Counted from the stretch's first letter, positions 5,255 through 19,035 are shown. The stretch is DNA of 24,724 nucleotides from Candidatus Cloacimonadota bacterium (GCA_016927675.1 JAFGMF010000035.1:1-24724); one strand, 5' to 3'. Made by a program: numbers and translations. The notes: a model not told the origin generated them from the sequence alone.

Positions 5255-8098
5255 TTAATTGTCCAGAATGTATCTGACTTTATTTACCAGATCTGAAGAA
5301 GAGAAAGGTTTCTGCAGAAAACCTGCATTCAGCTCGGTTATTCCTTTCTGGACAGCTACCGATTCGGTATATCCCGAGATAAAGAGTACTTTTGTATCTG
5401 GATGAAGGGATCTGATCTTATCAGCCAGTTGATGTCCGTTCATGTTCGGCATAACGACGTCGGTGACCAGCAGATGGATTTTTTTATCAAGATTCTTTGC
5501 TTTGTTCAGAGCATCTATACCGTTAGTCGCACCGATTACCTTATAACCGAATTCTTCCAGAATATCTATAACAAATTCTCTGATACTCGGTTCGTCTTCA
5601 GTTAGCAGAATCGTCTCGAAACCTCGGGGAAGTTCATCATCTTTAACCGGTCTTTCGATAATTTGAGGTTCTTCCTGAAATGCAGGAAAGTAGATAATAA
5701 ACTCACTGCCGATATTCGGTGAACTTTCAACAATTATAAATCCTTTATTCTGTTCGATAATCCCGAATACGGTTGCCAAACCGAGCCCTGTGCCCTTACC
5801 CTGGTCTTTGGTGGTAAAAAATGGCTCGAACAGATGCTGTTTAATTTCGTCACTCATCCCGATACCTGTATCTTTTACCGTTAAGACAACATAATCACCC
5901 GGGATGATCACTTTATCCACAGAATTGATTTCCTGGTCCACAGTCTTATTCTCTGTGCGTACGATGATCTTACCGCCCTGCTGCATAGCATCTCTGGCGT
6001 TGACAACGAGATTTGTTACGACCTGTTCTATCTGGCTTTTATCGACTTTTACGGTCAACAGGTTCTCACCCGGATAAGTTATCAGTTCCAGATCTTCGCC
6101 AATAAGTCGTCGCAGCATTTTATCCATATCCAGAATGATCGAATTCAGGTTAAGCAGTTTGGGCTCTACGATCTGTTTGCGGGAGAAGGCAAGCAGTTGC
6201 CGGGTAAGATCGGATGCTCTTTCTCCGCAGTTCAGAATCACTTCGATGTCTTTTCTGATCGGATCTGAAGCGGAAATTTTTTTAAGAACCAGATCTGCAT
6301 AGCCATTAATAGCCGTCAGCAGATTATTGAAATCATGGGCAATGCCTCCGGCAAGCCGACCGACGACCTCCATTTTCTGTGACTGGATCAGTTGCTGCAG
6401 AAGTTTTTCTTTTTCAGCTTCTGCCAGTTTTCTGTCGGTAATATCACGTCCGACAGCCTGATATTCTATGATCTGATTATCTTCGTTAAAGATCGCCCGA
6501 TGTGTCCATTCCAGCCAGTTCACTTTTTTACCTTGAATAATTTCATCTTCATAGACCAGATTCGGAGTTACACTATCAAGAGTTTTTATTTTATCCAGGA
6601 TAGATGATTTTTTTTCCGGGGTAAAATGTGTGAACCAGTTTGTCCCCTGATACGACTTGTGATTGCATTTATAATATCGGCAGAAAGCATCATTGATAAA
6701 GGTGATAGTGCCTTCGGCCAGATATCTGATTATCAGTTCGGATTGGTCTTCGACCACAGCTTTGTACTGAAGCTGGCTTTCCCGCAGGGCTTCTTCAGCT
6801 TCTTTCAGGGTTGTATTATCGATCATCACACCGGATATATATTTTTCACCTTTTTCATTTACTATCGGAGCCATTCTATCTTCAATCCAGAGATAATTGC
6901 CGTCTGCTTTTTTCAATCTATATAAAAGTGACAGCATGTTAGTATCCCCGGATTTGTACCATTTCGTAAAAGAATTCCTGTATTGAGCCTGGTCATCAGG
7001 ATGCATCAGACTTTTCATGTCTATTTTATCTGCAATGATCTTATCGGCAGTGATACCAATAAGCTGCTCTATATTATCTGAGATAAAGTCTCTGCCTCCG
7101 AATTTTTCATACAGGATGATATTGGGGACATTTTTGAAGATCGAGGTAAGCCTGAATTGTGTTTCTACCAGTTTTTTCTGAGTAAGTTTACGTTCTTCCA
7201 TCTCCTTGCGGAGCTGATTATGGGTCTGAGCATTTTTCAGAGCTGTTGATGCGTATGTTGCATAGGCTTCAGCCAGAGTAAGATCCTCTTCAGTATAGTC
7301 TTCTCCGATCCTGCTCAGGCACATGGCACCCAGCACTTGATTATCGACCAGAAAAGGTGCTGAGATCACCCGTTCATCCTCGATAACAGATGTTCCGGGG
7401 ATCTGCATACCCACCGGATTACCTCTGACCTCGTTAAAGATCAGAGCACGTCCTTCTTTCACAGCTCTGCCTGTAAAACTGTTATCTATGGATAAATCGG
7501 TTTTCAAAATTTCCTGATCAAATTCAGGATCAATAGCAACAACCGGGTTAAGAGTCTGATTGTCTTTCATCAGATAAATCGCACAGGATGAAGATCGTAG
7601 AATATCGGTTGCTCCTTTACCTATCTGGGTGAGAACTTCTTTAACATCAAGACTGGATGTTAGATGACGGGCCGACTCAAGTAATTGTTCCTGTTGACTT
7701 GTCTTCCTCTGAATGGCTTTTTCTATTTTGTGACGATAGAAAGCCATTTCGATTGTTGCATGTAATTCTCTTTCCTCGAATGGTTTGATGATATACCCGA
7801 AAGGTTCGGTTATTTTAGCGCTCTGAAGTGTTTTTTCGTTGGCGTAAGCAGTCAGATAGATAACCGGTGTCTGGATTTCACTGCGGATGATCCCGGCAGC
7901 TTCAATTCCATTCATCGGACCTTCCAGCATTATATCCATAAGAACGAGATCGGGTTTTTTATCTCTGGCGGCTTTGATCGCCAGCTCTCCGGAAGAAAGG
8001 ATACCGGTTACGGCATATCCGAAATTGATCAGAGTCCTTTTTATGTCTTCAGCGATAATTCGCTCATCTTCGACGATCATAATCTGCTTTTTATCCAT
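5255..8098 (-). CDS. Cytoplasmic hybrid histidine kinase: REC-GAF-PAS-PAS-HisKA-HATPase-REC
   Basis: N-terminal receiver (IMIVEDE, LMDIML), GAF-like segment, two PAS/PAC regions (WIEDR..., WLEW...GRDITDRK), H-box [13 protein letters not shown]-box [11 protein letters not shown]-boxes DTGIGM and GKGTGLGL, C-terminal receiver ([13 protein letters not shown]). No TM helix seen. AGGAG RBS. Confidence 0.93.
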
Positions 8099-8336: not shown

Positions 8337-9971
8337 TTACGTTTTTCTTTTCTTTCTGGGCGTACTTTTTCTACTGTCAGAATCAGTTCTTTTCCTGGCA
8401 TGAGTGATCAGTGATTTTTCACCTTTTTCTTTAAAGCGAACAATAATTTCCTCGGCTTGTTCGAAGGGTACTGTTAAAAAAGAGAAATTATCGAGGATCT
8501 GGATTTCACTGATAGCTCTTGATTTTATGGTAATTTTACTTTGCACAAGTTCGACCAGTTTCTGCGGATTAATGCCGTCTTTTCTGCCCAGAGCTACGAA
8601 TAATCTTGTCTTACCCTGCTGATCGACTTGTTTCCCTCTGGTCCCGAGATCTTTGATCTCTCCGTAAGCTTCAGGATTCAAATCATCTTCAAAAGAGTAA
8701 TGTAAAACTGCTGCCAGGATTTCGGTAGGGTTATTATCTTCCAGCAGATTTTTAGCCCAGTTGAAATATCTGGTTTCAGATTTTTTCTGAAGGAGATTAA
8801 CAATATCTTCGTTGATCTTGTTTTTCTTAGCATTGATAATATCCTGGATCTGGGGAACTCTCGATTTTTTGATATCTGTTTTTGCTATCCTCTGGATAAA
8901 CATCAGTCGTTTGTATTCACTCGGTGTGATAAAAGTGATTGCAGTTCCTTCATGACCTGCCCTTCCGGTTCTGCCAATCCGATGGACATATGACTCAGGA
9001 TCCTGAGGAAGAGCATAATTTATTACGTGAGTGAGATTGCTTACATCAATACCTCTGGCTGCCACATCAGTTGCTACCAGGATGTTGGCTCTTCTTTTTT
9101 TGAATTTCTCCAGGGTCCGTTCCCGCTGTGCCTGGGAGATATCACCGTGAATTGCTTCGGCATCATAACCTCTGTCGGTTAAATGATTGACTACTTCATC
9201 AACATCGATCTTGGTCCTGCAGAAGATCAACCCGTAAAATTCGGGTTCAATATCGATAATTCTGCAGAGTGCCTCGAATTTATCGGATGCTTTCACTTCG
9301 AAATATATCTGCTCCGTGAGATCAGTTGTCAGAGTTTCATTTTTAACCTTGATCAGTTCGTAATCATCCATGTATTTTTTAGCAAGACTTTTAATCCTGC
9401 TCGGGATCGTTGCGGAAAAAAGAAGTGTTCTTTTTTGAGGATTAGTATGTTTCATTATCTCTTCGATATCTTCGATAAAACCCATGTTGAGCATTTCATC
9501 TGCTTCATCCAGGATCAAATGCTCTATTTCCTGAAGTTTCAGGGTTTTCCTGTTAAGATGATCGATAATTCTTCCCGGAGAGCCGACTACGATATGGACT
9601 CCTTTTTTCAGCATCCGTAATTGCTGATCGATTGATTGACCGCCATAGATCGGTACAACTATGATCTGTTTGTCACCCTTGAGTGAATTGATCTCCTCTG
9701 AGACCTGGATCGCGAGTTCACGGGTGGGAACCAGGATCAGAGCTTGAACATTTCTGGAGAGTGGATCTACCATGTCAATCAGCGGTAAGCTGAAAGCGGC
9801 TGTTTTACCGGTACCGGTTTGAGCCTGGGCAATAATGTTCTTATCATCCTGAAGCATCACGGGGATCGTTATAACCTGAATAGGTGTTGGTTCCTCAAAT
9901 CCTTTCTTTTCTATGGCAGCCAGAGCATTTGCCGACAGACCCAGTTCATTGAAAGCTAATGTTTTTTCCAT
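8337..9971 (-). CDS. deaD: DEAD-box RNA helicase (DeaD/CshA-like) with C-terminal DbpA-type RNA-binding domain
   Basis: Q motif (GFEEPTPIQ), AQTGTGKT, PTRELA, DEAD, SAT, ARGID, HRIGRTGRAG; the C-terminal RLFVALGRKDGI segment is typical of the DbpA RNA-binding domain. Confidence 0.9.
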   Translation of the reverse strand: MEKTLAFNELGLSANALAAIEKKGFEEPTPIQVITIPVMLQDDKNIIAQAQTGTGKTAAFSLPLIDMVDPLSRNVQALILVPTRELAIQVSEEINSLKGDKQIIVVPIYGGQSIDQQLRMLKKGVHIVVGSPGRIIDHLNRKTLKLQEIEHLILDEADEMLNMGFIEDIEEIMKHTNPQKRTLLFSATIPSRIKSLAKKYMDDYELIKVKNETLTTDLTEQIYFEVKASDKFEALCRIIDIEPEFYGLIFCRTKIDVDEVVNHLTDRGYDAEAIHGDISQAQRERTLEKFKKRRANILVATDVAARGIDVSNLTHVINYALPQDPESYVHRIGRTGRAGHEGTAITFITPSEYKRLMFIQRIAKTDIKKSRVPQIQDIINAKKNKINEDIVNLLQKKSETRYFNWAKNLLEDNNPTEILAAVLHYSFEDDLNPEAYGEIKDLGTRGKQVDQQGKTRLFVALGRKDGINPQKLVELVQSKITIKSRAISEIQILDNFSFLTVPFEQAEEIIVRFKEKGEKSLITHARKRTDSDSRKSTPRKKRKT

Positions 9972-10806: not shown

Positions 10807-11697
10807 TTACTGATAGCCGAATTCCTTGAGAGCGTTTTTTTTCTTACGCCAGTTTGGTTTGATCTTGATCCAGAGATGCAGGCGTATTTTTTTTCCGATA
10901 ACACGATAGATCTCTTTTTCTGAGGCGAGTCTGATCTTCTTGATCATTTCTCCATTTGTGCCGATCAGGATAGGTTTCTGGGATTTCCTTTCCAGCCAGA
11001 TATTGGCGGAGATTACGATCTTATTTGGTTCTTCTTTGAAATCTTCCACCACCACTGTGGATGAATAAGGTATTTCTTCTCGAAAATTATGAAAGATCTG
11101 CTCTCTGATTATCTCCTGAGCAAAAAAACGCATCGGCAGATCGGATATCTCATCTTCTGCATAATATGGAGGATTAAACGGCATATAGCCGGAGATCAAT
11201 TGGATCAGATCTGCAAGATTTCCAGTATTGATCAGAGAGATGGGAATAACACGCTCGAAACCGAACCCACCCAGTTCTGTTTCCCTGGAGCTTACAGTCT
11301 GGGCATCAGTTTTATCTATTTTATTGAGCAGGGCAATCTTTGGTGAAGGATGTCGTGTAATCAGTTTCAGGATTTCAAGATCATAATCGGTAGGATAATT
11401 CTGAACATCCGTGATAAAAATAATTAGGTCTGTATCTTTAAGAGAAGACATGATATAGCCGACCATTTTATCCTGAAGTTCATAACGTGGTTTTAAAAAA
11501 CCCGGAGTATCAAGAAAGATCAGCTGACAATTATCGCCGTTATATATTCCCTTGATCTGATGCCTGGTGGTTTGAGGTTTGGCGGAGATAATGGATAATT
11601 TTTCCTGAAGAATTAAATTAAGAAAAGTTGATTTGCCGACATTTGGACGTCCGATAATGGTGATGAAACCACTGCGGAAATTTTTATCATCTTTCAT
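10807..11697 (-). CDS. era: GTPase Era
   Basis: SGFITIIGRPNVGKSTFLN, AKPQTTR, FLDTPG, NKID, then a KH domain (EEIPYS, KPILIGTNG..IKKI, LWIKIKPNW). Confidence 0.97.
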   Translation of the reverse strand: MKDDKNFRSGFITIIGRPNVGKSTFLNLILQEKLSIISAKPQTTRHQIKGIYNGDNCQLIFLDTPGFLKPRYELQDKMVGYIMSSLKDTDLIIFITDVQNYPTDYDLEILKLITRHPSPKIALLNKIDKTDAQTVSSRETELGGFGFERVIPISLINTGNLADLIQLISGYMPFNPPYYAEDEISDLPMRFFAQEIIREQIFHNFREEIPYSSTVVVEDFKEEPNKIVISANIWLERKSQKPILIGTNGEMIKKIRLASEKEIYRVIGKKIRLHLWIKIKPNWRKKKNALKEFGYQ

Positions 11698-12719
11698 GAG
11701 TTTCCTTTACACAGGTTATAGATCAGTTTTTCCAGAATGATATATCCTTTTATGTCGGTTGATTTTAACTCAGTATCAGCCTGAAGGAGATGAGAAAAAA
11801 TGCCGGGGATATCTTTTCTTCGAAAATTAACTGAAAAATTAAGATAATCCTGACGAAAAGATGGATAAACCTCCGTCAGATGTTCTCTTTTAATCTGATC
11901 TGGGGAGACACCTTTTTCTTTGAGAACCGATACTCGCCAAAGCAGGTTGAAGAAACGTGTGAGCATGGTAATTATATAGACACCCGGTTCATCGTTGGCG
12001 ATCAGGTTCTCCAGAACAAGAATTGATCTGGGCAGATCTTTTACTCCCAGGGAATTCTGCAGTTCAAAAATGGAATTGGTCTTACTTTTACCTACTGCTG
12101 CCAGAACATCATCAACGGAAATATGTTTAGCCAGACGGGTAAAGATAATTAACTTTTCGAGTTCATTTGCTGCGATCAGATAATCAGTTTCAACCGTATT
12201 GGCAAAAATCTCAACAGCCTCTCGATCCATATCTATCTGCAGTTTACGCAGCTCAAAATTAAGCCACCGGGCGATATCAGAAGAACCGTAAGGCTCTTTG
12301 CATTCAACGCAGACTGCTTCGCTCATGAGTGTTTTGATCAGTTTCTGGCGACCGTCCATTTTATCGGAAACAACGATAAAAGTTGAAGATTTTTCCGGTG
12401 ATTCCAGATATCTCTGCAATTTATTTCTATCAAGAGGTTTCATCATTTCCAGATTACGCAGAATGATCAATCTTCGAGAAGCGATCATGGGCGGCATTTC
12501 AAGTTGTTCCAGTATTTCTGAAGAAGAACAAGTATCTCCGTATAGGATGATAAAGTCAAAAACATCCATCTCCGGTGTTTTTAACATTTCTATCAGGGAA
12601 CTTTGAGCAGTATCCTTAAGATACTGATCTCCGCCGAAAATATAGAATAAAGGCTGGGATTTGAGTGAATTCAGCTGAGATAGAAATTCATGATGACGAT
12701 ATACTTTTTTAGCGCTCAT
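11694..12719 (-). CDS. holA: DNA polymerase III subunit delta
   Basis: YIFGGDQYL, LEMPPMIASRRLII, NELEKL, IFELQNSL, LLQADTELKS, ILEKLI: HolA pattern at typical length. ATGA overlaps with both neighbours. Confidence 0.88.
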   Translation of the reverse strand: MSAKKVYRHHEFLSQLNSLKSQPLFYIFGGDQYLKDTAQSSLIEMLKTPEMDVFDFIILYGDTCSSSEILEQLEMPPMIASRRLIILRNLEMMKPLDRNKLQRYLESPEKSSTFIVVSDKMDGRQKLIKTLMSEAVCVECKEPYGSSDIARWLNFELRKLQIDMDREAVEIFANTVETDYLIAANELEKLIIFTRLAKHISVDDVLAAVGKSKTNSIFELQNSLGVKDLPRSILVLENLIANDEPGVYIITMLTRFFNLLWRVSVLKEKGVSPDQIKREHLTEVYPSFRQDYLNFSVNFRRKDIPGIFSHLLQADTELKSTDIKGYIILEKLIYNLCKGNS

Positions 12720-15196
12720 TCTCTTGATCTCTTCGGTTCGCCTGCCGTTAACTCGGTGATCAGAACCCCAATGGTCGCACTCAAAGAAAAGATAAATATC
12801 CTCCAGACAAGTTGTCCGGCAAAAGGTTCTTGATTGCCCAGCATTTGATTACCTCCTGCTGAGATAATTGCCAGGATGAAACCGCTCAAACTGCCGTAGA
12901 CAACTCTTTTCCAGAAAATCATTCCTTTTGCGGCGCGGGTTACAGCAGAGCCCATCAGCATCGGCAGGAAAAAAATCAACCACCAGAGTTGTCGTAAACT
13001 GGGCAGGTAATCCAGATAGCTTAGAAAATAATAATCTGTAAAAAACAGTGTGGCTGCAGCCAGAATAATCAATAGAGGAATATGCCAGTATCGAGGTTGC
13101 ATTTCTGCTCTGACTGCACTTCTTTCCACGAACTGGCGTCTAAGGGTAAGAGGCCAGTTATAGAAAAGATTATAGATCCAGTGCTCGAGTAAGGCTCCTT
13201 TCTCTCCGAAAACAGGAATGATATGAACCGCTTCAGTAGCCCAGTGACCAGCCATGAACCGGGCAAGAGCTGCATAACGGTATGTCATCTGAATCGGAAA
13301 AGCCAGATAACCGATGTATTTAAAAAAAGCCAGGAATACGGCTATGTTGTAATTTTTGAAATCCCGCTCCCTGATTACAAGGAAAAGCACATAAAGACCT
13401 CGTGCCAGAGAGCCCGGTGAAATCGGGATCACCTGAAATAGTGCAATAATGCCAAATCCTGTACCCCAGGCTTGAGCACGGGGTAATTCCGGATGAGATG
13501 TGATATAGATAATAGCTATCAGAACAGACACTATTTGTGTTAATGGGATCGTACAAACATGAACTGCCAGACTTTTCAGGTATTTCTGAATAAAAGGTTC
13601 CTTGATCTGAGCGGATATGGTCTGTGAATCTTCATCTGTGAGGATGTTTTTCTGTTTTCCTTCTTCCAGCATTTCATTGAGCCATTCTTCTCGCAAATTC
13701 GCATCGAAATAAAGTTTAACAGGCCGGATAAACAGAAAATAAAGCCGTTCCCTGAAATATCTCCGATCTGAGAAAAAACGATGAAGACCTTCAGGAAGCA
13801 GAGATAACAAAGAATGCCAGCAGTATGAGGTAAAGGAATGCAGAATAATGTCTACTTTTTCCGAATTGATCCTTTCGGCACGATGCCATTTGATCAGTCT
13901 TTCACAGATATGTGCCTTGATGGCTCTGATGAAATATCTCCGGTTTGAAAAGATCAATCTGTAATGTGACAACCATGTCTTATTGCCACAGAGTTTCAGG
14001 AAAAATCTGCCAAGTAATGGAATAAAATTTAGAAAATAAAATAACCTGCCTGCAAACATCTTCCGGTTGAGATATTCGGCAAAATCCTGATCAATAATAT
14101 TTCTGATCTGCCATGACTGGATTGCAGCGCGCAAAATAGTCTCATGAAGCTTTCGACTGAATAACAGCCTGAGATGATTATGGGTGATATCCGGTACAGA
14201 ATTACGGTAGAGCTTCTCTTTTTCTGATAATTCAGCAATCAGAGGCAGTAGATCGGTAAAAGCTTCTTTTCTGGTGTGAAGATAAAGTGTGAGTTTTTTA
14301 AGATTACCTCGATCAAACTGAACTAGACTACCTCGTTTTAAACCCTGCCAGATCAGTTTTATATCTCCGGGACTCATCGGCAAAAAGGGCAATAATACCA
14401 GACCTGCTCTGAAATCGACGGCAACCAGTCCCCGGGAGGGATCTGATTCGAAGGACTTTCGTTTCAGACAATTAGGTTGACTCTTGCAGGTTGTCCATTC
14501 GTATTGCCTTGCTAACTCAGGTGCTCCGATCTTGTGGAGCATTCTGACAAAATCATGCATGAAAGTGTATTTGGCTCTGTATTCAGGTGAACCCAGATCA
14601 GGATCGTTCACGATTTTTCCACGATGCCATTTTTTCAGAAGATTGAGATGATCATCTGCTTCAAGTCTCCATGTTCGGCCATCGATCCATTCCAGTATTT
14701 CTCCGCAACTTCCCAGTCTGGTATCAAGCAGAGTTCCGTGGATATCTGCAACCAGGTCTTCGCTGCCAAGTTCGATCGCAGCAGCTCTGCGGATGATTTT
14801 CTGCCAGAGAGCACCGGCTCTGGCTGCAGCGGGATTTACCTGCAGTTGAAAGAAACTTCCAAATCCGATAAAATAGAGGAGATTCCTGAATATACGGGCA
14901 AATCGGCCGGGAGGGATTAGTATCTTCATCGCATAAAGTGCTTCAGGATTTAATCCTGATACTCTGGCTGAACAGCTTTTTAACCTTACTTGATAAACCT
15001 GTCCGGCAAATCCTCCGCCAATGAATTTTTCTATCAGTAGAGTTATCTTTACAGTGCCGGCGGTTGTGAAAGTTTGCAGCTCATAGGTTAACTCAATCCC
15101 AGGTTCGTAGCGGTCGTAACGGAAAGGTCTCAGAATTTTCATGGATTTGAAGCGATCCATGAGTGAAAAGATTTTTGCAATACTATAAGTTGCCAT
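12716..15196 (-). CDS. Uncharacterised 826-aa protein: atypical protein-kinase-like N-domain, helical repeats, multi-pass membrane C-domain
   Basis: Long ORF within the gene cluster. Gly loop G60GGFAGQVY, beta3 Lys (AMK91), hinge-like EILEWIDG, KSQPN242, D261FR. About 6-7 hydrophobic helices after residue ~540. Start codon uncertain (M1, M13 or M19). Confidence 0.7.
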   Translation of the reverse strand: MATYSIAKIFSLMDRFKSMKILRPFRYDRYEPGIELTYELQTFTTAGTVKITLLIEKFIGGGFAGQVYQVRLKSCSARVSGLNPEALYAMKILIPPGRFARIFRNLLYFIGFGSFFQLQVNPAAARAGALWQKIIRRAAAIELGSEDLVADIHGTLLDTRLGSCGEILEWIDGRTWRLEADDHLNLLKKWHRGKIVNDPDLGSPEYRAKYTFMHDFVRMLHKIGAPELARQYEWTTCKSQPNCLKRKSFESDPSRGLVAVDFRAGLVLLPFLPMSPGDIKLIWQGLKRGSLVQFDRGNLKKLTLYLHTRKEAFTDLLPLIAELSEKEKLYRNSVPDITHNHLRLLFSRKLHETILRAAIQSWQIRNIIDQDFAEYLNRKMFAGRLFYFLNFIPLLGRFFLKLCGNKTWLSHYRLIFSNRRYFIRAIKAHICERLIKWHRAERINSEKVDIILHSFTSYCWHSLLSLLPEGLHRFFSDRRYFRERLYFLFIRPVKLYFDANLREEWLNEMLEEGKQKNILTDEDSQTISAQIKEPFIQKYLKSLAVHVCTIPLTQIVSVLIAIIYITSHPELPRAQAWGTGFGIIALFQVIPISPGSLARGLYVLFLVIRERDFKNYNIAVFLAFFKYIGYLAFPIQMTYRYAALARFMAGHWATEAVHIIPVFGEKGALLEHWIYNLFYNWPLTLRRQFVERSAVRAEMQPRYWHIPLLIILAAATLFFTDYYFLSYLDYLPSLRQLWWLIFFLPMLMGSAVTRAAKGMIFWKRVVYGSLSGFILAIISAGGNQMLGNQEPFAGQLVWRIFIFSLSATIGVLITELTAGEPKRSRE

Positions 15197-15209: not shown

Positions 15210-16409
15210 TTAGAGGATAGCGGGGAGATCGGACTGGAATAGCTGGGAAGCCGGGATCAGTTCCAGATCAAGTTCGTCGATTAAAGCGAGGAATCTTTTC
15301 AGGTAATCAAGATGTACCTGACCGGCACAATGAGAGATTACCAGGATATAATCACGACTTTTACTCACAGTTTTGAGATAGTCGATCTTTTCTGAAAAGG
15401 TTTTATCCGAAATAGATGGGGTATCCAGGAAGAAAGTATTTTCATAAGAGGGAACCATCAATTCTTTAGCCATTTTATATGCAATTGAAGCTTGATTGGT
15501 GCGACTGTCTATAAAGAAGAGATTGCTTTTCTTCAGTGTTTCCAGAACAGCCTGCATCACGGCAGCATCAGTTGTAGCCAGGGAACCCATATGATTGTTT
15601 GCACCCACGCAAAGCGGAAGCTGTTTGATATATCCCTGAACTTTTTTCTTTATCTCCCGCGGTGAATCATGAACATAGATTGCGTTTTCACCGGGATTAG
15701 CCTTCGGATAATTCAATGGTTCCATAGGCATGTGGATAATCGTCTCATGTCCTTTTTCAGCCGCTTTTTCCATTACTTCGCGGGAATGCGGACAATGAGG
15801 TAAAATGGCAAAAGTGATCTCCTCGGGTAGATTCAGAAAATCATCAAGCAGCTTACCATTAAAATAGCCAAAATCGTCAATGACAAAAGCGATTTTGGTC
15901 AGCTTTTTACTGGTGCTGGCATACTGGGAATAATAAAGGTTAACTATGTATTTCTGATTCTGGCCAATGTCGAAAAATTCCAGAACCTGTCGGTTGTTGT
16001 TATTTTTTTCTACACCTTTCAGAATTCTGCCGCCGGCAAGTTCAATCTGACCGGTAATGATCGCATTGGCAAAATTCAGGTCCATGGTCTGGCTGTTTAT
16101 ACCTGCAGAAAAATAGATAGCATCATCTTTCTTTTCCTGGCGATATTTGGATTCAGGAATTCCCAGCAGTTTAAAGCTGTGAATTAGGGCAGATTCCAGG
16201 GTTATCGTATTTGCTTTATATTTTCCGGATAATCGATTTTCAGCAGATCGTTTTTGGAAGGAATTGGCCACTCGGCTGTCAACCAGCAGATAAAGGATGA
16301 TAAGTACCAGAATGACAAACCCAAAAGCATACAATGTTTTCTTTTTGTTTGCCGGATATTTTTTTTTCCTGAGTTTTCTTTTCCCTGATCTTCTATATTT
16401 CTTCGCCAT
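15210..16409 (-). CDS. Divergent polysaccharide deacetylase family protein (YibQ-like), membrane anchored
   Basis: Basic N-tail, one TM helix, spacer region, then IAFVIDDFG, FAILP, HMPMEP, NNHMGS, FFIDSRT, FFLD motifs. GAGGAG RBS. Confidence 0.88.
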   Translation of the reverse strand: MAKKYRRSGKRKLRKKKYPANKKKTLYAFGFVILVLIILYLLVDSRVANSFQKRSAENRLSGKYKANTITLESALIHSFKLLGIPESKYRQEKKDDAIYFSAGINSQTMDLNFANAIITGQIELAGGRILKGVEKNNNNRQVLEFFDIGQNQKYIVNLYYSQYASTSKKLTKIAFVIDDFGYFNGKLLDDFLNLPEEITFAILPHCPHSREVMEKAAEKGHETIIHMPMEPLNYPKANPGENAIYVHDSPREIKKKVQGYIKQLPLCVGANNHMGSLATTDAAVMQAVLETLKKSNLFFIDSRTNQASIAYKMAKELMVPSYENTFFLDTPSISDKTFSEKIDYLKTVSKSRDYILVISHCAGQVHLDYLKRFLALIDELDLELIPASQLFQSDLPAIL

Positions 16410-16803: not shown

Positions 16804-19035
16804 TCAAAAAGTGGTGCCAAATTGAAAGTGTGGCTCCCATTTTCGTTCATCCAGATTATAAGCATAGTCAAAACCGATCAATCCAAAAGGACTCTGCACT
16901 CTGATACCAACTCCGGCACCTTTTTTTAATTCCCAGAAGTTGAATTTACTTAGGCTGTTGTAACTGTTACCGGCATCGAAAAAGAGAAGACCGACAATTT
17001 GATCTCCGGCAATAGGTGCACCATATTCTGTTGAAAAGATGACTTCTCTCAATCCACCATCTGCAGGACCGACAGAACGTTCCGGATAACCTCTGATTCC
17101 ATCAGCTCCGGTACCGCCCAGAGAAAACCTTTCATCGGGCGGAACATCTTTTCCGTCAAAACCTGTAACATAGCCAAAACGCCATTTGGTTTTCAGAGAA
17201 AGTTCCCAGATGGTTTTAATGTACCAGCTTACCTGAGATATCTGTTTGAAATAACTGAAGTCACCCTGAAGCGGTCCCCCGGCTAATTCATTGTAAATCG
17301 TGAACTGAGAACCCGTGGTCGGGAAAAAGATATTATCCCGGCTGTCTCTGGAAAAGGTCAGAGATATCAAACTTGTATGTTGCCATCCGGACTCATCCAG
17401 ATCTTTCAGGGTATTCGAAGCATTATCTTCTTCGCCTGAAAGGATACTGTATTTCTTGGCATAGTAAGAATATCCGGCAGTGAGTCTGCTGAAATTCAAA
17501 AATGGCAGAGGACGTCCTATCCTGATCGATCCGCCGTTGGTTCGAACTTTATAGGTATCCCATTCTTTGGTGGTATGATAGATATCGAATCCTGCCAGAG
17601 TGGAGGTATCAAAAAGGTACGGATTGGTGAAATTAAAACTGAAATTCTGGGTTTTACCGCCAAACTCCCATTTGACTCCGGCTTGCCAGGAATTTCCGAA
17701 AAGATTATTATGAGATACTGCCAGCTGGCCTACCAGTCCGTCCTGACTGTTAATGGCAACACCTCCATTAGCGGATCCGGATACTTTATCGGTAAGGTAA
17801 AGATTGATGTCAATATCACCGTTATTATTAATCGGAGCGGAAGGTTCTGGATAAAGGTCCGGTTCGAAGAATCCCATGTTGTAGATGTTGGACAGGGTTC
17901 GTCTTAGTTTGGATTGCTGATAATAGTCACCCGGGGAGATTGCTAACTGACGGCGAATTACCTTTTCTTTGGTTTTACGATTGCCCAGGATGTTAATTTT
18001 GCGAATCCTGGCTTGGGTATTTTCGATTATCTTCAGGCGGATGTCTATTTTATCGCCTCTTTTCTCTAGATCATGATCAAAGCGGGAATAAATATAACCT
18101 TCTTCATAATACATGGAGGCGACTGAGGATAAATGAGTTTTAAACTTTTCCAGATTAAAAACTTCATCTTCTTTAAATCTGAAATTTTCAGTGATAACTT
18201 CATCAGTAAATCTATCATTACCTTCTACATATACATCCCCGAAGTTATATGACTCGCCCTCGAACAGATAGATATCCACAATAAATTTTTCATCTTCAAT
18301 TTTTTTATCCCAGGAGATCACTCTGGCATCGATAAACCCGCGTTTATTGTAAAACTCAACGATCCTGGTCAGATCTTCATCGAATTTATCCTGCTCGAAT
18401 TTACCGGAGCGGAAAAAACTGGCACTTTTTGTTTTCATTTTTCCCAGGATTTTTTTGGCAGGGATTTCCTTGTTTCCATGTATTCGGATTGACCTGATCA
18501 CGATTTTTGTACTTTCATCAATGTTTATGATCAGATCTACTCTGTTATCGGGTTTGGATATTTCAGTAAAATTGACTTCAGCAAGATGATATCCTTTTTG
18601 TTTATATTCAGAAATTATCTTCTTTTTGATATCTACCTTAAGGAATGGCGATAAATAACTGCCCTTTTTTACCGGGATGATATCAGTAAGTCTGGCAGTC
18701 TTAACTTTTTCGTTGTTCTGGATTTCAATTTCATCCACAATTGGGAATTCAATTACATCAACAGTGATAATAATTCCCTGATCAAGTTGCTCTCCCGATA
18801 TCCTGATATCCTCGAAAACACCTAACTTATAAAGATCCTGAATTGATTTGCTCACAGCTTCCCGGGTGAGTAAATCCCCTATCTCAAAGTCCAGAAGAGA
18901 TAAGATCAGATCGGTTTCTATATTTTCTGTCCCCTGGATCTCAATATCCAGGATAAGATTATTACCTTCCTGCGCCAGGCACAGATTAACCCAGAACAGC
19001 CCCAGTATAGCTGTGATGAAAATAATTCTGAACAT
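16804..19035 (-). CDS. bamA: Outer membrane protein assembly factor BamA
   Basis: Signal peptide; POTRA-like repeats (IEIQGTE, IRIHGNK, VYVEGND, INILGNRKTKEKVIRRQL); barrel with IRGY, FFDAGN, GAGVGIRVQSPFG and a C-terminal FQFGTTF. GGAGG RBS. Confidence 0.95.
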   Translation of the reverse strand: MFRIIFITAILGLFWVNLCLAQEGNNLILDIEIQGTENIETDLILSLLDFEIGDLLTREAVSKSIQDLYKLGVFEDIRISGEQLDQGIIITVDVIEFPIVDEIEIQNNEKVKTARLTDIIPVKKGSYLSPFLKVDIKKKIISEYKQKGYHLAEVNFTEISKPDNRVDLIINIDESTKIVIRSIRIHGNKEIPAKKILGKMKTKSASFFRSGKFEQDKFDEDLTRIVEFYNKRGFIDARVISWDKKIEDEKFIVDIYLFEGESYNFGDVYVEGNDRFTDEVITENFRFKEDEVFNLEKFKTHLSSVASMYYEEGYIYSRFDHDLEKRGDKIDIRLKIIENTQARIRKINILGNRKTKEKVIRRQLAISPGDYYQQSKLRRTLSNIYNMGFFEPDLYPEPSAPINNNGDIDINLYLTDKVSGSANGGVAINSQDGLVGQLAVSHNNLFGNSWQAGVKWEFGGKTQNFSFNFTNPYLFDTSTLAGFDIYHTTKEWDTYKVRTNGGSIRIGRPLPFLNFSRLTAGYSYYAKKYSILSGEEDNASNTLKDLDESGWQHTSLISLTFSRDSRDNIFFPTTGSQFTIYNELAGGPLQGDFSYFKQISQVSWYIKTIWELSLKTKWRFGYVTGFDGKDVPPDERFSLGGTGADGIRGYPERSVGPADGGLREVIFSTEYGAPIAGDQIVGLLFFDAGNSYNSLSKFNFWELKKGAGVGIRVQSPFGLIGFDYAYNLDERKWEPHFQFGTTF

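Follow-up and report, generated by a model that had tools for sequence, protein, structure and literature searches.

The lipid carrier of cell-wall synthesis, undecaprenyl phosphate (Und-P), is regenerated from Und-PP, and in the textbook account of carrier recycling the order is "dephosphorylate outside, then flip". BacA/UppP (E. coli BacA, PF02673) carries the motif PGxSRSGxT, and LpxT illustrates that an acceptor other than water may receive the terminal phosphate of Und-PP. Among kinase folds, COQ8 acts as an ATPase rather than phosphorylating proteins. The active site of BacA faces outward, and apart from BacA the known Und-PP phosphatases are the PAP2 proteins (PMC12826051). AceK combines a kinase scaffold with a strictly ATP/ADP-dependent phosphatase activity (PMC6591243), and SidJ is described as an active enzyme with a kinase fold that lacks the canonical catalytic Asp (PMC6858067). 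Here we analyze a family that probably represents an undescribed route for regenerating Und-P; our literature search found no paper on displacement of BacA by this family.

The window is a 24,724-nt stretch of DNA from a Candidatus Cloacimonadota bacterium whose genome is 75% complete. A first-pass annotation of this stretch had claimed an open reading frame for an atypical kinase fused to a membrane domain. This reading frame was borne out on the minus strand (Table 1), and every motif quoted for it lies at the residues given: GGGFAGQVY at 60–68, YAMK91, EILEWIDG at 166–173, WTTCKSQPN242, D261-F-R and PVFGEKGALLEH at 661–672. A chance reading frame is excluded by more than 2930 homologues at E<=0.001 (8000 candidates scored; more than 2900 are described as full-length), which form 419 clusters at 50% identity, and by the family's occurrence in no fewer than 558 GTDB species genomes. 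The protein, hereafter the target, is a long-form member of an unnamed family in which a kinase-fold domain is joined to a membrane domain. The first-pass annotation could place it in no family known to it, and no characterized family claims it in Pfam, NCBIfam or PDB sequence and profile searches. At E<=1 it matches zero Pfam families, which removes PAP2 (PF01569) as a candidate and leaves the Pkinase profile (PF00069) unmatched, and the PDB sequence and profile searches returned no significant kinase.

Table 1. Positions of the target gene, its predicted parts and its neighbors, counted from the first letter of the window.
Feature	Position	Strand	Remarks and basis
Target gene	12716..15196	minus	826 aa + stop, ATG start; ORF and translation
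Protein-kinase-like domain	14297..15124	minus	residues ~25-300; top fold matches all kinases
Glycine-rich nucleotide loop G60-G-G-F-A-G-Q-V-Y68	14993..15019	minus	conservation and AF2 model
K91, beta3 lysine, A-x-K-x-L-x-P motif	14924..14926	minus	conservation and strand position
Catalytic-loop region R230-Q231 to N242	14471..14509	minus	carries Mg-binding Asn; no Asp at N-5
D261-F-R-A-G265, DFG-type metal-binding motif	14402..14416	minus	D261 and G265 invariant
All-helical middle domain	13598..14296	minus	residues ~301-533; DSSP on model and conservation
Conserved membrane core	13106..13597	minus	residues ~534-697; hydropathy and models
Loop motif P591-I-S-P-G-S-L-A-R599-G	13397..13426	minus	between helices 573-589 and 594-610
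Loop motif P661-V-F-G-E-K-G-A-L-L-E671	13184..13216	minus	followed by amphipathic helix 669-697
C-terminal four-helix membrane bundle	12719..13099	minus	mark of the long form; residues 700-826
Divergent polysaccharide deacetylase (PF04748)	15210..16409	minus	left border of slot, 13 nt upstream of target; Pfam E 7.5e-65
holA (DNA polymerase III delta)	11694..12719	minus	right border of slot; ATG overlaps target stop by 4 nt; Pfam
era	10807-11697		comes after holA

The full-length AF2 model (pLDDT 92.4, pTM 0.88) predicts a protein-kinase-like fold for the N-terminal third of the target, in which the nucleotide and Mg residues are kept and the catalytic-base Asp is absent. The kinase-like fold that had been claimed from the sequence was recovered by all three structure searches. 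All 50 of the top 50 Foldseek matches in the PDB are kinases (probability ~1, E 1.5e-3 to 1e-2), as are ranks 1–49 of the top 50 in VIA-align (Z 8.6–10.2), and the ESM Atlas structure neighbors of residues 25–345 are all Pkinase proteins. The top fold matches include YabT (6g4j, Z 10.2), ChaK (1ia9, Z 9.9), PknB (1mru, Z 9.5), BubR1 (6jkk) and GSK3beta (1q41).

Conservation was assessed in 38 diverse homologues with 23–57% identity. G60, G62, V67, R104, G224, R230, Q231, N242, D261, G265, P276, R599, G629, P661 and G664 are invariant in all 38. The glycine loop, in which F63, A64, Q66 and Y68 are each at least 90% conserved, forms the beta1-beta2 turn between strands 48–61 and 66–75 of the AF2 model. 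K91 sits within modeled strand 87–92 and is kept in 37/38 homologues, together with A89 (35/38) and P95 (37/38). In the catalytic loop T236, S239 and Q240 are 87–92% conserved and N242 immediately precedes strand 243–246, while D261 immediately follows strand 257–259 and R263 is kept in 32/38. The first-pass annotation had singled out five residues here for possible invariance; N242 and D261 proved invariant, whereas position 233 is Glu in 27 of the 38, position 237 varies among L, C, M, W and F, and position 238 is mainly Lys (19) or Val (15). Its two observed absences also hold for the family. Because position N-5 (residue 237) is hydrophobic throughout the 38 homologues, the missing catalytic Asp is a family trait, and no alphaC Glu is conserved, helix 98–112 bearing instead R104, which is invariant, and next to it D/N105. 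The annotation had named lack of a kinase-like fold, poor conservation of K91, N242 and D261, or a match to a characterized family as results that would speak against it, and none of the three was observed.

Protein kinases, among them the bacterial YabT, PknB and PpkA, supply the nearest solved folds, and the target could on this basis be a conventional Ser/Thr kinase of the Hanks type, or a receptor kinase, with protein substrates. We regard this as extremely improbable, as the Pkinase profile fails to match even at E<=1, the fold-match E-values reach only 1e-3 to 1e-2, and the HRD Asp and alphaC Glu are absent. An APE-type segment is likewise absent, and the C-lobe is reduced and is completed by a helix of the membrane module. 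In addition, the genomic behavior described below is that of a housekeeping envelope enzyme.

The hydrophobic C-terminal part noted in the first reading was confirmed by hydropathy and the model, and it resolves into a conserved core (residues ~534–697) and a four-helix bundle (helices within 705–817), preceded by the helical middle domain. The middle domain has conserved residues P393, G396, H411, Y421, W437, R442, P468, R502 and W505, and it has no structural neighbors outside the family. The core consists of hydrophobic helices plus short helix-loop-helix units. For the core, the best E that Foldseek reached in the PDB was only 1.0, and its confident matches among AFDB clusters are exclusively long uncharacterized proteins resembling the target's own family; as modeled, the core thus has no structural relative beyond the family. 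Its two loop motifs are strongly conserved (P591 in 37/38 homologues, P594 in 33/38, R599 in 38/38; G667 in 37/38 and E671 in 36/38). Helix 669–697 superposes on a kinase C-lobe helix, the VIA-align kinase alignments extending to residues 672–691, and the pLDDT of the P661...E671 loop falls from 84–89 in the full model to 61–72 in a model built without the kinase domain. The four-helix bundle is carried by ~40% of diverse homologues and gapped in ~60%, and its structural matches are generic four-helix bundles only. A PgpA domain (PF04608) was considered for this tail and rejected (no Pfam match, BLASTP E >2, hhalign probability of the tail profile against 26 PgpA sequences 0.16%). In some other family members the core is naturally fused, at its C-terminus, to PgpA, and one such gene adjoins a PgsA-PgpA pair.

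In three phyla the target occupies the slot that bacA occupies elsewhere. The gene order is deacetylase-target-holA-era in the window and its carrier relatives, and five relatives without the target have deacetylase-bacA-holA, in which bacA overlaps holA in the same way as the target does. In a Planctomycetota order the arrangement is pgpA, then bacA or the target, then c2-c3-purA-uppS, and in non-carriers there PgpA is fused to BacA. In Desulfobacterales, the BacA gene of non-carriers is flanked by a PGM gene on one side and a 642-aa gene on the other, and the same interval in carriers holds the target, in opposite orientation and accompanied by two or three extra genes.

The long form and BacA are also almost perfectly mutually exclusive across the sampled genomes of three groups, namely Cloacimonadota, a Planctomycetota order and a Desulfobacterales-type order. 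BacA/UppP (PF02673) is present in 1/71 long-form carriers and in 243/249 non-carriers, counts that overstate the statistics as the genomes are related and non-independent. Among 151 Cloacimonadota genomes BacA occurs in 0/13 carriers and 135/138 non-carriers, and within the mixed genera g4, g7 and g13 the two genes are complementary genome by genome. Corresponding values are 0/44 carriers and 36/37 non-carriers for the G151 order of Planctomycetota (81 genomes, >=90% complete) and 0/7 and 72/74 for the Desulfobacterales-type G154 order (81 genomes); carriers G152, G153, G155, G317, G318 and G320 likewise gave no BacA match. Carrier genomes were searched with PF02673 in six frames, and no match was found, the target gene included. 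Six non-carriers have neither gene. The single long-form carrier that also has BacA, G319, bears its target on a 6.8-kb contig of a Nitrospiraceae-labeled bin, and the protein nests within the Desulfobacterales clade of the target tree; mis-binning or recent transfer is a plausible explanation. A short-form clade (~690–730 aa, no four-helix tail) co-occurs with BacA in 3/3 genomes, which indicates that the family core is not enough for BacA replacement or does not always serve that end.

Based on the complementary distribution and the shared locus, we propose that the target likely replaces BacA in the Und-P cycle as a non-homologous Und-PP phosphatase. A displacement pattern could also arise if a cassette integrated at the bacA locus and deleted it while having an unrelated function of its own, such as signaling or defense. 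The target is indeed patchy within genera, its tree follows phylum for the most part with a few foreign labels nested (some transfer), and the Desulfobacterales version has its extra genes and opposite orientation. However, with three flanking contexts in three phyla bacA would have to be targeted independently each time, and the window shows no integrase, repeats or mobile-element genes beside the target, which is translationally coupled to holA within a housekeeping operon. Moreover, BacA was not found anywhere in 70/71 carriers, a loss that would not be tolerated so regularly were it neutral, and genome G199 shows the reverse outcome, in which BacA is kept and the neighboring target has decayed to a remnant of 250 aa. 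We therefore consider positional exclusion very improbable.

A forward lipid kinase, acting on undecaprenol or, together with PgpA, on a lipid related to PG, might make BacA dispensable without performing its reaction. The conserved ATP/Mg residues in a kinase fold and the PgpA genes fused to or adjoining target-family genes agree with this possibility. An alcohol acceptor normally requires a catalytic base, however, which is absent here, and the adjacency to PgpA is accounted for by the slot, PgpA being equally tied, even fused, to BacA where the target is missing. Within the window's lineage, carriers and non-carriers do not differ in this respect: PgpA is either encoded at another locus or not found. 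Conversion of undecaprenol to Und-P also cannot replace de novo dephosphorylation of Und-PP unless another phosphatase is present, and neither BacA nor PAP2 was found in the complete chromosomes of G151 and G153. A forward kinase is in our view improbable. Cloacimonadota carriers do retain PAP2 genes, which could cover Und-PP dephosphorylation in that phylum, and the target need not be the sole phosphatase there.

Returning to the replacement of BacA, the target would be an inner-membrane enzyme that supplies Und-P from Und-PP for cell-envelope synthesis. Nucleotide use and action from the cytoplasmic side are both probable. The first-pass annotation's suggestion of a membrane-embedded, nucleotide-using enzyme acting on lipid fits these findings, and comparative genomics narrows the role to the place of BacA. 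Its specific chemistry, a nucleotide-dependent dephosphorylation of Und-PP, is a tentative proposal. The cytoplasmic kinase-like domain would bind ATP or ADP with Mg, and the core loops P591...R599 and P661...E671 would present the diphosphate head group of Und-PP to the nucleotide site, membrane topology and the proximity of these loops to the ATP site having been deduced without coordinates. The terminal phosphate would then be removed at this site by transfer to ADP, as in a kinase run backwards, or alternatively by AceK-like nucleotide-dependent hydrolysis. The missing Asp alongside invariant R104 and R230 would follow, since no general base is required when phosphate serves as nucleophile or leaving group. 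The membrane part, including the four-helix tail, may return externally released Und-PP to the inner leaflet.

The strongest conservation outside the kinase residues falls in the two Pro/Gly loops with their invariant Arg and conserved Glu, and these loops could bind and hydrolyze the diphosphate unaided. The membrane core alone might accordingly be the Und-PP phosphatase or translocase, with the kinase-like domain as a non-catalytic ATP/ADP sensor that gates the core by energy state. The family-wide loss of the catalytic-base Asp fits such an arrangement, there is ample precedent for pseudokinases that still bind nucleotide (PMC4718504), and the BacA displacement data fit it equally well. Against it, N242 and D261 are invariant metal ligands for phosphoryl transfer, beyond what mere binding needs, and R230 and Q231 of the catalytic loop are invariant as well, residues of a kind lost in many non-catalytic pseudokinases. 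The packing of helix 669–697, directly after P661...E671, in the kinase C-lobe further suggests one composite site. We judge the sensor arrangement to be rather unlikely. If nucleotide-dependent dephosphorylation is correct, the phosphate is possibly passed to ADP with its bond energy kept as ATP, and carrier recycling would run "flip, then dephosphorylate", opposite to the textbook order. In genomes like G151, where DedA and DUF368 were also not found, the tasks of phosphatase (BacA/PAP2) and Und-P flippase (DedA/DUF368) would both fall to this single protein. The family may possibly constitute a third, non-homologous class of Und-PP-processing enzyme, cytoplasmic-side and nucleotide-using, whose kinase fold takes the phosphate and whose membrane module returns Und-PP.

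Among known systems, the target shares with Hanks-type kinases and pseudokinases, the closest solved of which also include VRK3 (2jii) and CASK (3mfs), a bilobal fold over ~140–200 aligned residues (Z 9–10), but it has R104 in place of the alphaC Glu, no catalytic Asp, and the invariant R230-Q231 pair. SelO and SidJ are likewise kinase folds that lack the canonical Asp, and both are active enzymes, as the first-pass annotation noted; unlike the target they have protein substrates and no membrane module, and Pfam, ESM Atlas, Foldseek and VIA-align revealed no specific sequence or structural similarity. AceK, which sets an example of nucleotide-assisted phosphate removal by a kinase fold, resembles the target at the level of fold class; it is soluble, acts on a protein and keeps its catalytic aspartates. 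UbiB/ABC1/COQ8 proteins (PF03109) are kinase folds tied to membranes and polyprenyl-lipid metabolism, a tie predicted for the target, and have in common with it a Q-V-[YH] loop ending and an A-x-K-x-x-x-P strand. Three ABC1 proteins of the phylum aligned by hhalign over residues 61–95 only, which pairs the nucleotide loop and Lys of the two families (pairwise E 4e-4, probability 35%). The target was not assigned to this family, as the alignment is local and weak, the PF03109 HMM does not match and it lacks the Asp-bearing catalytic loop of ABC1; its membrane module is also different and far larger.

Of the Und-PP phosphatases, the PAP2 proteins (PgpB, YbjG, BcrC, LpxT) have an unrelated fold and motifs. 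BacA may resemble the target in its short helix-loop-helix units with Pro/Gly/Ser/Arg loops, to judge by its PGxSRSGxT motif. The target is three times larger and has a predicted cytoplasmic domain for nucleotide binding with no counterpart in BacA, its hhalign probability against 13 BacA sequences was below 1%, and BacA is not among the Foldseek and VIA-align matches of the membrane-part model, although a missing match is weak evidence. Taken together, the slot common to both in three phyla, the complementary distribution over more than 300 genomes and the partnership with PgpA, including fusions, that BacA and the target family have in common lead us to infer the same cellular role for the two proteins.

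The gene under study is a single open frame on the minus strand that encodes 826 amino acids from an ATG start; a plus-strand reading of the same interval was ruled out by its many stops. The kinase motifs quoted in the first-pass annotation were all found in the translation at the residue numbers it had assigned to them. The genes for BamA, a deacetylase, the kinase-fold protein, HolA and Era form a tight five-gene series on one strand, as listed in the table. The window also encodes a 947-aa hybrid protein, unrelated to the present finding; judged from its translation, it has a receiver domain at each terminus and, between them, GAF/PAS-like sensor regions and a histidine-kinase core.

Features of the window: the kinase-fold gene, the genes in series with it, and a hybrid protein gene
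Feature	Position	Strand	Remark
bamA	16804-19035	minus	same-strand series with the kinase-fold gene
divergent polysaccharide deacetylase (PF04748)	15210-16409	minus	ends 13 nt before the kinase-fold gene
kinase-fold gene	12716-15196	minus	between the deacetylase gene and holA
holA	11694-12719	minus	ATG overlaps the stop of the kinase-fold gene by 4 nt
era	10807-11697	minus	same-strand series
947-aa hybrid protein	5255-8098	minus	

Five relatives that lack the kinase-fold gene (non-carriers) hold a 266-267-aa gene between the deacetylase gene and holA, and this gene is bacA/uppP (PF02673, E 1e-76 to 1e-87, with agreeing coordinates), which encodes the undecaprenyl-diphosphate (Und-PP) phosphatase. 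It overlaps its neighbors in the same way as the kinase-fold gene does. BacA has been replaced in place by the kinase-fold protein. When searches for the two proteins were cross-tabulated over the identical 151 genomes sampled from the Cloacimonadota, the kinase-fold gene was present in 13, patchily even within genera, and BacA was absent from all 13 of these carriers and present in 135 of the 138 non-carriers; the three non-carriers without BacA are 82%, 86% and 96% complete. Within the three mixed genera (g4, g7 and g13) the two proteins are complementary genome by genome. As a separate observation, one orthologue (G121:C73:2907-5366), from a 95%-complete genome in which BacA was not found, contains one internal TAA, for which sequencing error, recent pseudogene formation and recoding are possible explanations.

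The same exchange is seen in other phyla, where BacA was not found in five carriers that include three complete chromosomes. In the order around one of the Planctomycetota carriers, G151 (81 genomes, at least 90% complete), BacA is encoded by 0 of 44 carriers and by 36 of 37 non-carriers. The non-carrier locus reads pgpA-bacA-c2-c3-purA-uppS, with PgpA and BacA often joined in one 442-459-aa fusion, and the carrier locus reads pgpA-kinase-fold gene-(rSAM)-c2-c3-purA-uppS. A Planctomycetota genome with a PgpA-BacA fusion, G199, has immediately upstream of it a 250-aa open frame (L099:3853-4605). Because this frame matches the kinase-fold protein over residues 424-479 and 685-803 only, we read it as the decayed remnant of a kinase-fold gene in a genome that kept BacA. 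Among 81 genomes of the Desulfobacterales-type order, BacA is found in none of the 7 carriers and in 72 of the 74 non-carriers; here bacA is flanked by a phosphoglucomutase-family gene on one side and a 642-aa gene on the other, and the corresponding interval of carriers is occupied by the kinase-fold gene and a few additional genes, oriented the other way. In total, BacA is present in 1 of 71 carriers of the long form of the protein, which has a C-terminal four-helix tail, versus 243 of 249 non-carriers. The sole exception, G319, has its kinase-fold gene on a 6.8-kb contig in a bin labeled Nitrospiraceae, and the encoded protein nests within the Desulfobacterales clade. Homology between the kinase-fold protein and BacA was rejected on comparison.

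Three neighboring genes, c2 (259 aa) and c3 (161 aa) in Planctomycetota and c8 (298 aa) in Desulfobacterales, matched no Pfam or NCBIfam family, and since BacA is flanked by them as well they say nothing specific about the kinase-fold protein. The c2 product (L063:3381-4160) is soluble and that of c3 (L069:4147-4632) has one hydrophobic helix; both genes follow the slot ahead of purA and uppS in Planctomycetota carriers and non-carriers alike.

A partnership with PgpA, the phosphatidylglycerophosphatase A, was considered, as two members of the family end in a genuine PgpA domain and pgpA lies directly upstream of the kinase-fold gene in 23 of 78 loci. All 23 are from Planctomycetota. In the window's lineage pgpA occurs in carriers and non-carriers alike and never adjoins the kinase-fold gene, and its presence in 5 of 5 Cloacimonadota non-carriers and 3 of 5 carriers rules out that it tracks the gene there; no PgpA was found in the window's own genome, which is 75% complete. 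A test also ruled out the possibility that the four-helix tail is a degenerate PgpA. PgpA is a neighbor of the slot that holds BacA, which explains the adjacency of pgpA and the kinase-fold gene. PgpA-BacA/UppP fusions of 442-459 aa were located in Planctomycetota genomes lacking the kinase-fold gene (L097:3455-4822, L098:3443-4822 and L099:4605-5933); such a fusion couples two lipid-phosphate phosphatases, and the size of many BacA open frames in the order of G151, 436-517 aa, suggests that it is common there. One of the family members with a C-terminal PgpA domain (P0130, 890 aa, L088:6001-8673) faces, in convergent orientation, a second, stand-alone pgpA and a gene for a CDP-alcohol phosphatidyltransferase (8839-9927), and its genome thus holds two PgpA domains. 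No neighbor recurred around the distant homologues P0199, P0170 and P0252.

A clade of short forms, which lack the tail, occurs alongside BacA in 3 of 3 genomes; displacement of BacA is therefore specific to the long form, of which the window's protein is a member. The short-form clade (∼690-730 aa), represented by P0134 (L090:6001-8193) and found in genomes G316, G323 and G324, is 41% identical and accompanied by a somewhat divergent BacA, and it may serve another function than the long form does. Cloacimonadota carriers retain PAP2 genes. To our knowledge, four families serve Und-P recycling, namely BacA, PAP2, DedA/VTT and DUF368. Neither BacA nor PAP2 was found in the complete carrier chromosomes G151 and G153, and in G151 (2.7 Mb, holding locus L057) DedA/VTT and DUF368 were not detected either, leaving none of the four. 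Because the protein tree largely tracks phyla, many carriers within each phylum are non-independent, and the independence of the replacements rests on their occurrence in three phyla, each with flanks of its own, on the switches within genera and on the remnant in G199. The role of the protein as a replacement for BacA is well supported by this comparative evidence.

Searches with the protein against Pfam, NCBIfam and PDB sequences returned no matches even at E≤1 or 10, and a PDB profile search likewise returned nothing of use. The best profile match, a BRIL-MurJ chimera (E 0.078), was discarded because the alignment spans the artificial junction of the chimera. Relatives are nevertheless numerous, with more than 2930 at E≤0.001 among 8000 candidates scored and 419 clusters at 50% identity in an exhaustive HMMER search. 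The best 120 relatives are full-length, 53-57% identical and without a Pfam domain; any names given by their sources are 'hypothetical'. By motif, at least 558 matching stretches were confirmed in GTDB species genomes, which places the family in no fewer than 558 species genomes, from several phyla and for the most part MAGs of uncultured organisms from metagenomes; the best 80 loci are from MAGs labeled Cloacimonadota, Planctomycetota, Desulfobacterales, Latescibacterota, Aminicenantes and others. The conserved core comprises residues 1 to ∼695, and only ∼40% of a diverse homologue set has the last four helices (700-826). The window's copy has a terminal branch of 0.88, four times the median of 0.21, and despite this long branch it retains every invariant residue. 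The amino-acid composition of Cloacimonadota copies differs from the rest of the family. Two loci from MAGs labeled Armatimonadota (L007 and L008) have the Cloacimonadota-type context of deacetylase and kinase-fold genes, and the tree places their proteins, with full support, inside the Cloacimonadota clade; we doubt either the labels or the binning.

The N-terminal domain has a kinase fold with intact nucleotide and Mg2+ residues in which the general base is absent. An AF2 model built on the family alignment has a mean pLDDT of 92.4 and a pTM of 0.88. The top 50 Foldseek matches in the PDB are all kinases, including BubR1, GSK3beta, VRK3, CASK, GAK and choline kinase, with probabilities of ∼1 yet E values of only 1.5e-3 to 1e-2. 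Kinases, RIO kinases and alpha-kinases among them, also occupy ranks 1-49 of an exhaustive VIA-align pass (Z of 10.2 for YabT, 9.9 for ChaK, 9.8 for PpkA and 9.5 for PknB, over 139-207 aligned residues). Outside the family, the ESM Atlas neighbors of residues 25-345 are Pkinase proteins only, and the language-model neighbors of the same residues are small kinase-clan families. Among 38 sequences of 23-57% identity, G60, G62, V67, R104, G224, R230, Q231, N242, D261, G265, P276, Y421, W437, R599, G629, P661 and G664 are invariant. Conservation is at least 90% at F63, A64, Q66, Y68, A89, K91, P95, W131, W170, W234, T236, S275, D295, H411, R442, R502, W505, P591, G667 and E671. The position of the kinase catalytic Asp, five residues before N242, is hydrophobic family-wide, and C237, K238 and E233, which the first-pass annotation had singled out, proved not to be conserved in the 38 homologues.

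The C-terminal part is a new conserved membrane and helical module. Folded alone, residues 520-826 reach a pLDDT of 92.2, the least confident stretch being the loop P661...E671 (61-72 versus 84-89 in the full model); this fall in pLDDT suggests that the loop is held by the kinase domain in the model. Directly after the loop comes helix 669-697, which stands in for a kinase C-lobe helix, as many VIA alignments to kinases continue to residues 672-691. Foldseek found no relative of the membrane part in the PDB (best E 1.0), and the confident core matches among AFDB clusters are only long uncharacterized proteins resembling the protein's own family. For the four-helix tail we obtained only generic bundle matches under the stated helical noise level, and its match to the membrane helices of FtsX (Z 8.7) likewise scored below that level.

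Peptidoglycan, O-antigen, capsule and teichoic acid synthesis all depend on Und-P as their limiting carrier, and the only Und-PP phosphatases that we know of are BacA and PAP2 enzymes, both acting in the outer leaflet. We propose that the N-terminal domain, which has no signal sequence and would bind a nucleotide, should be cytoplasmic. The diphosphate head group is probably bound next to the nucleotide site by two invariant Pro/Gly loops, each of which lies between short helices, and the terminal phosphate of Und-PP would be removed there. With phosphate as nucleophile or leaving group no base would be needed, in keeping with the lack of the Asp and the presence of invariant arginines. Such a phosphate may pass either to ADP or to water, the membrane module may in addition flip Und-PP, and the kinase-like domain may alternatively act just as a nucleotide sensor. 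A phosphatase on a kinase scaffold has a precedent in AceK, whose phosphatase strictly requires ATP or ADP (PMC6591243).

The family appears to substitute for BacA and is a testable candidate for Und-PP processing at the inner face, in which the kinase fold would be put to a new use. According to a recent review, why dephosphorylation is confined to the outer face is an open question (PMC12826051). The replacement also opens a functional route into a large family without Pfam annotation, and it is a clean natural case of an essential-pathway gene replaced in place by an unrelated gene. BacA has been described as a target of, or receptor for, bacitracin-type agents and certain bacteriocins (PMC12765074); that escape from such agents drove the replacement is speculation. 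Our literature search found no paper linking a kinase-like protein to undecaprenyl recycling, and nothing relevant on PgpA and a pseudokinase or on a new kinase family. ABC1/UbiB gave a weak local profile match (probability 35%) to exactly the nucleotide loop and Lys strand of the protein. By the tests run here, the protein belongs to none of the Pkinase, ABC1, BacA, PgpA and PAP2 families, and its common ground with known systems is the kinase fold class only.
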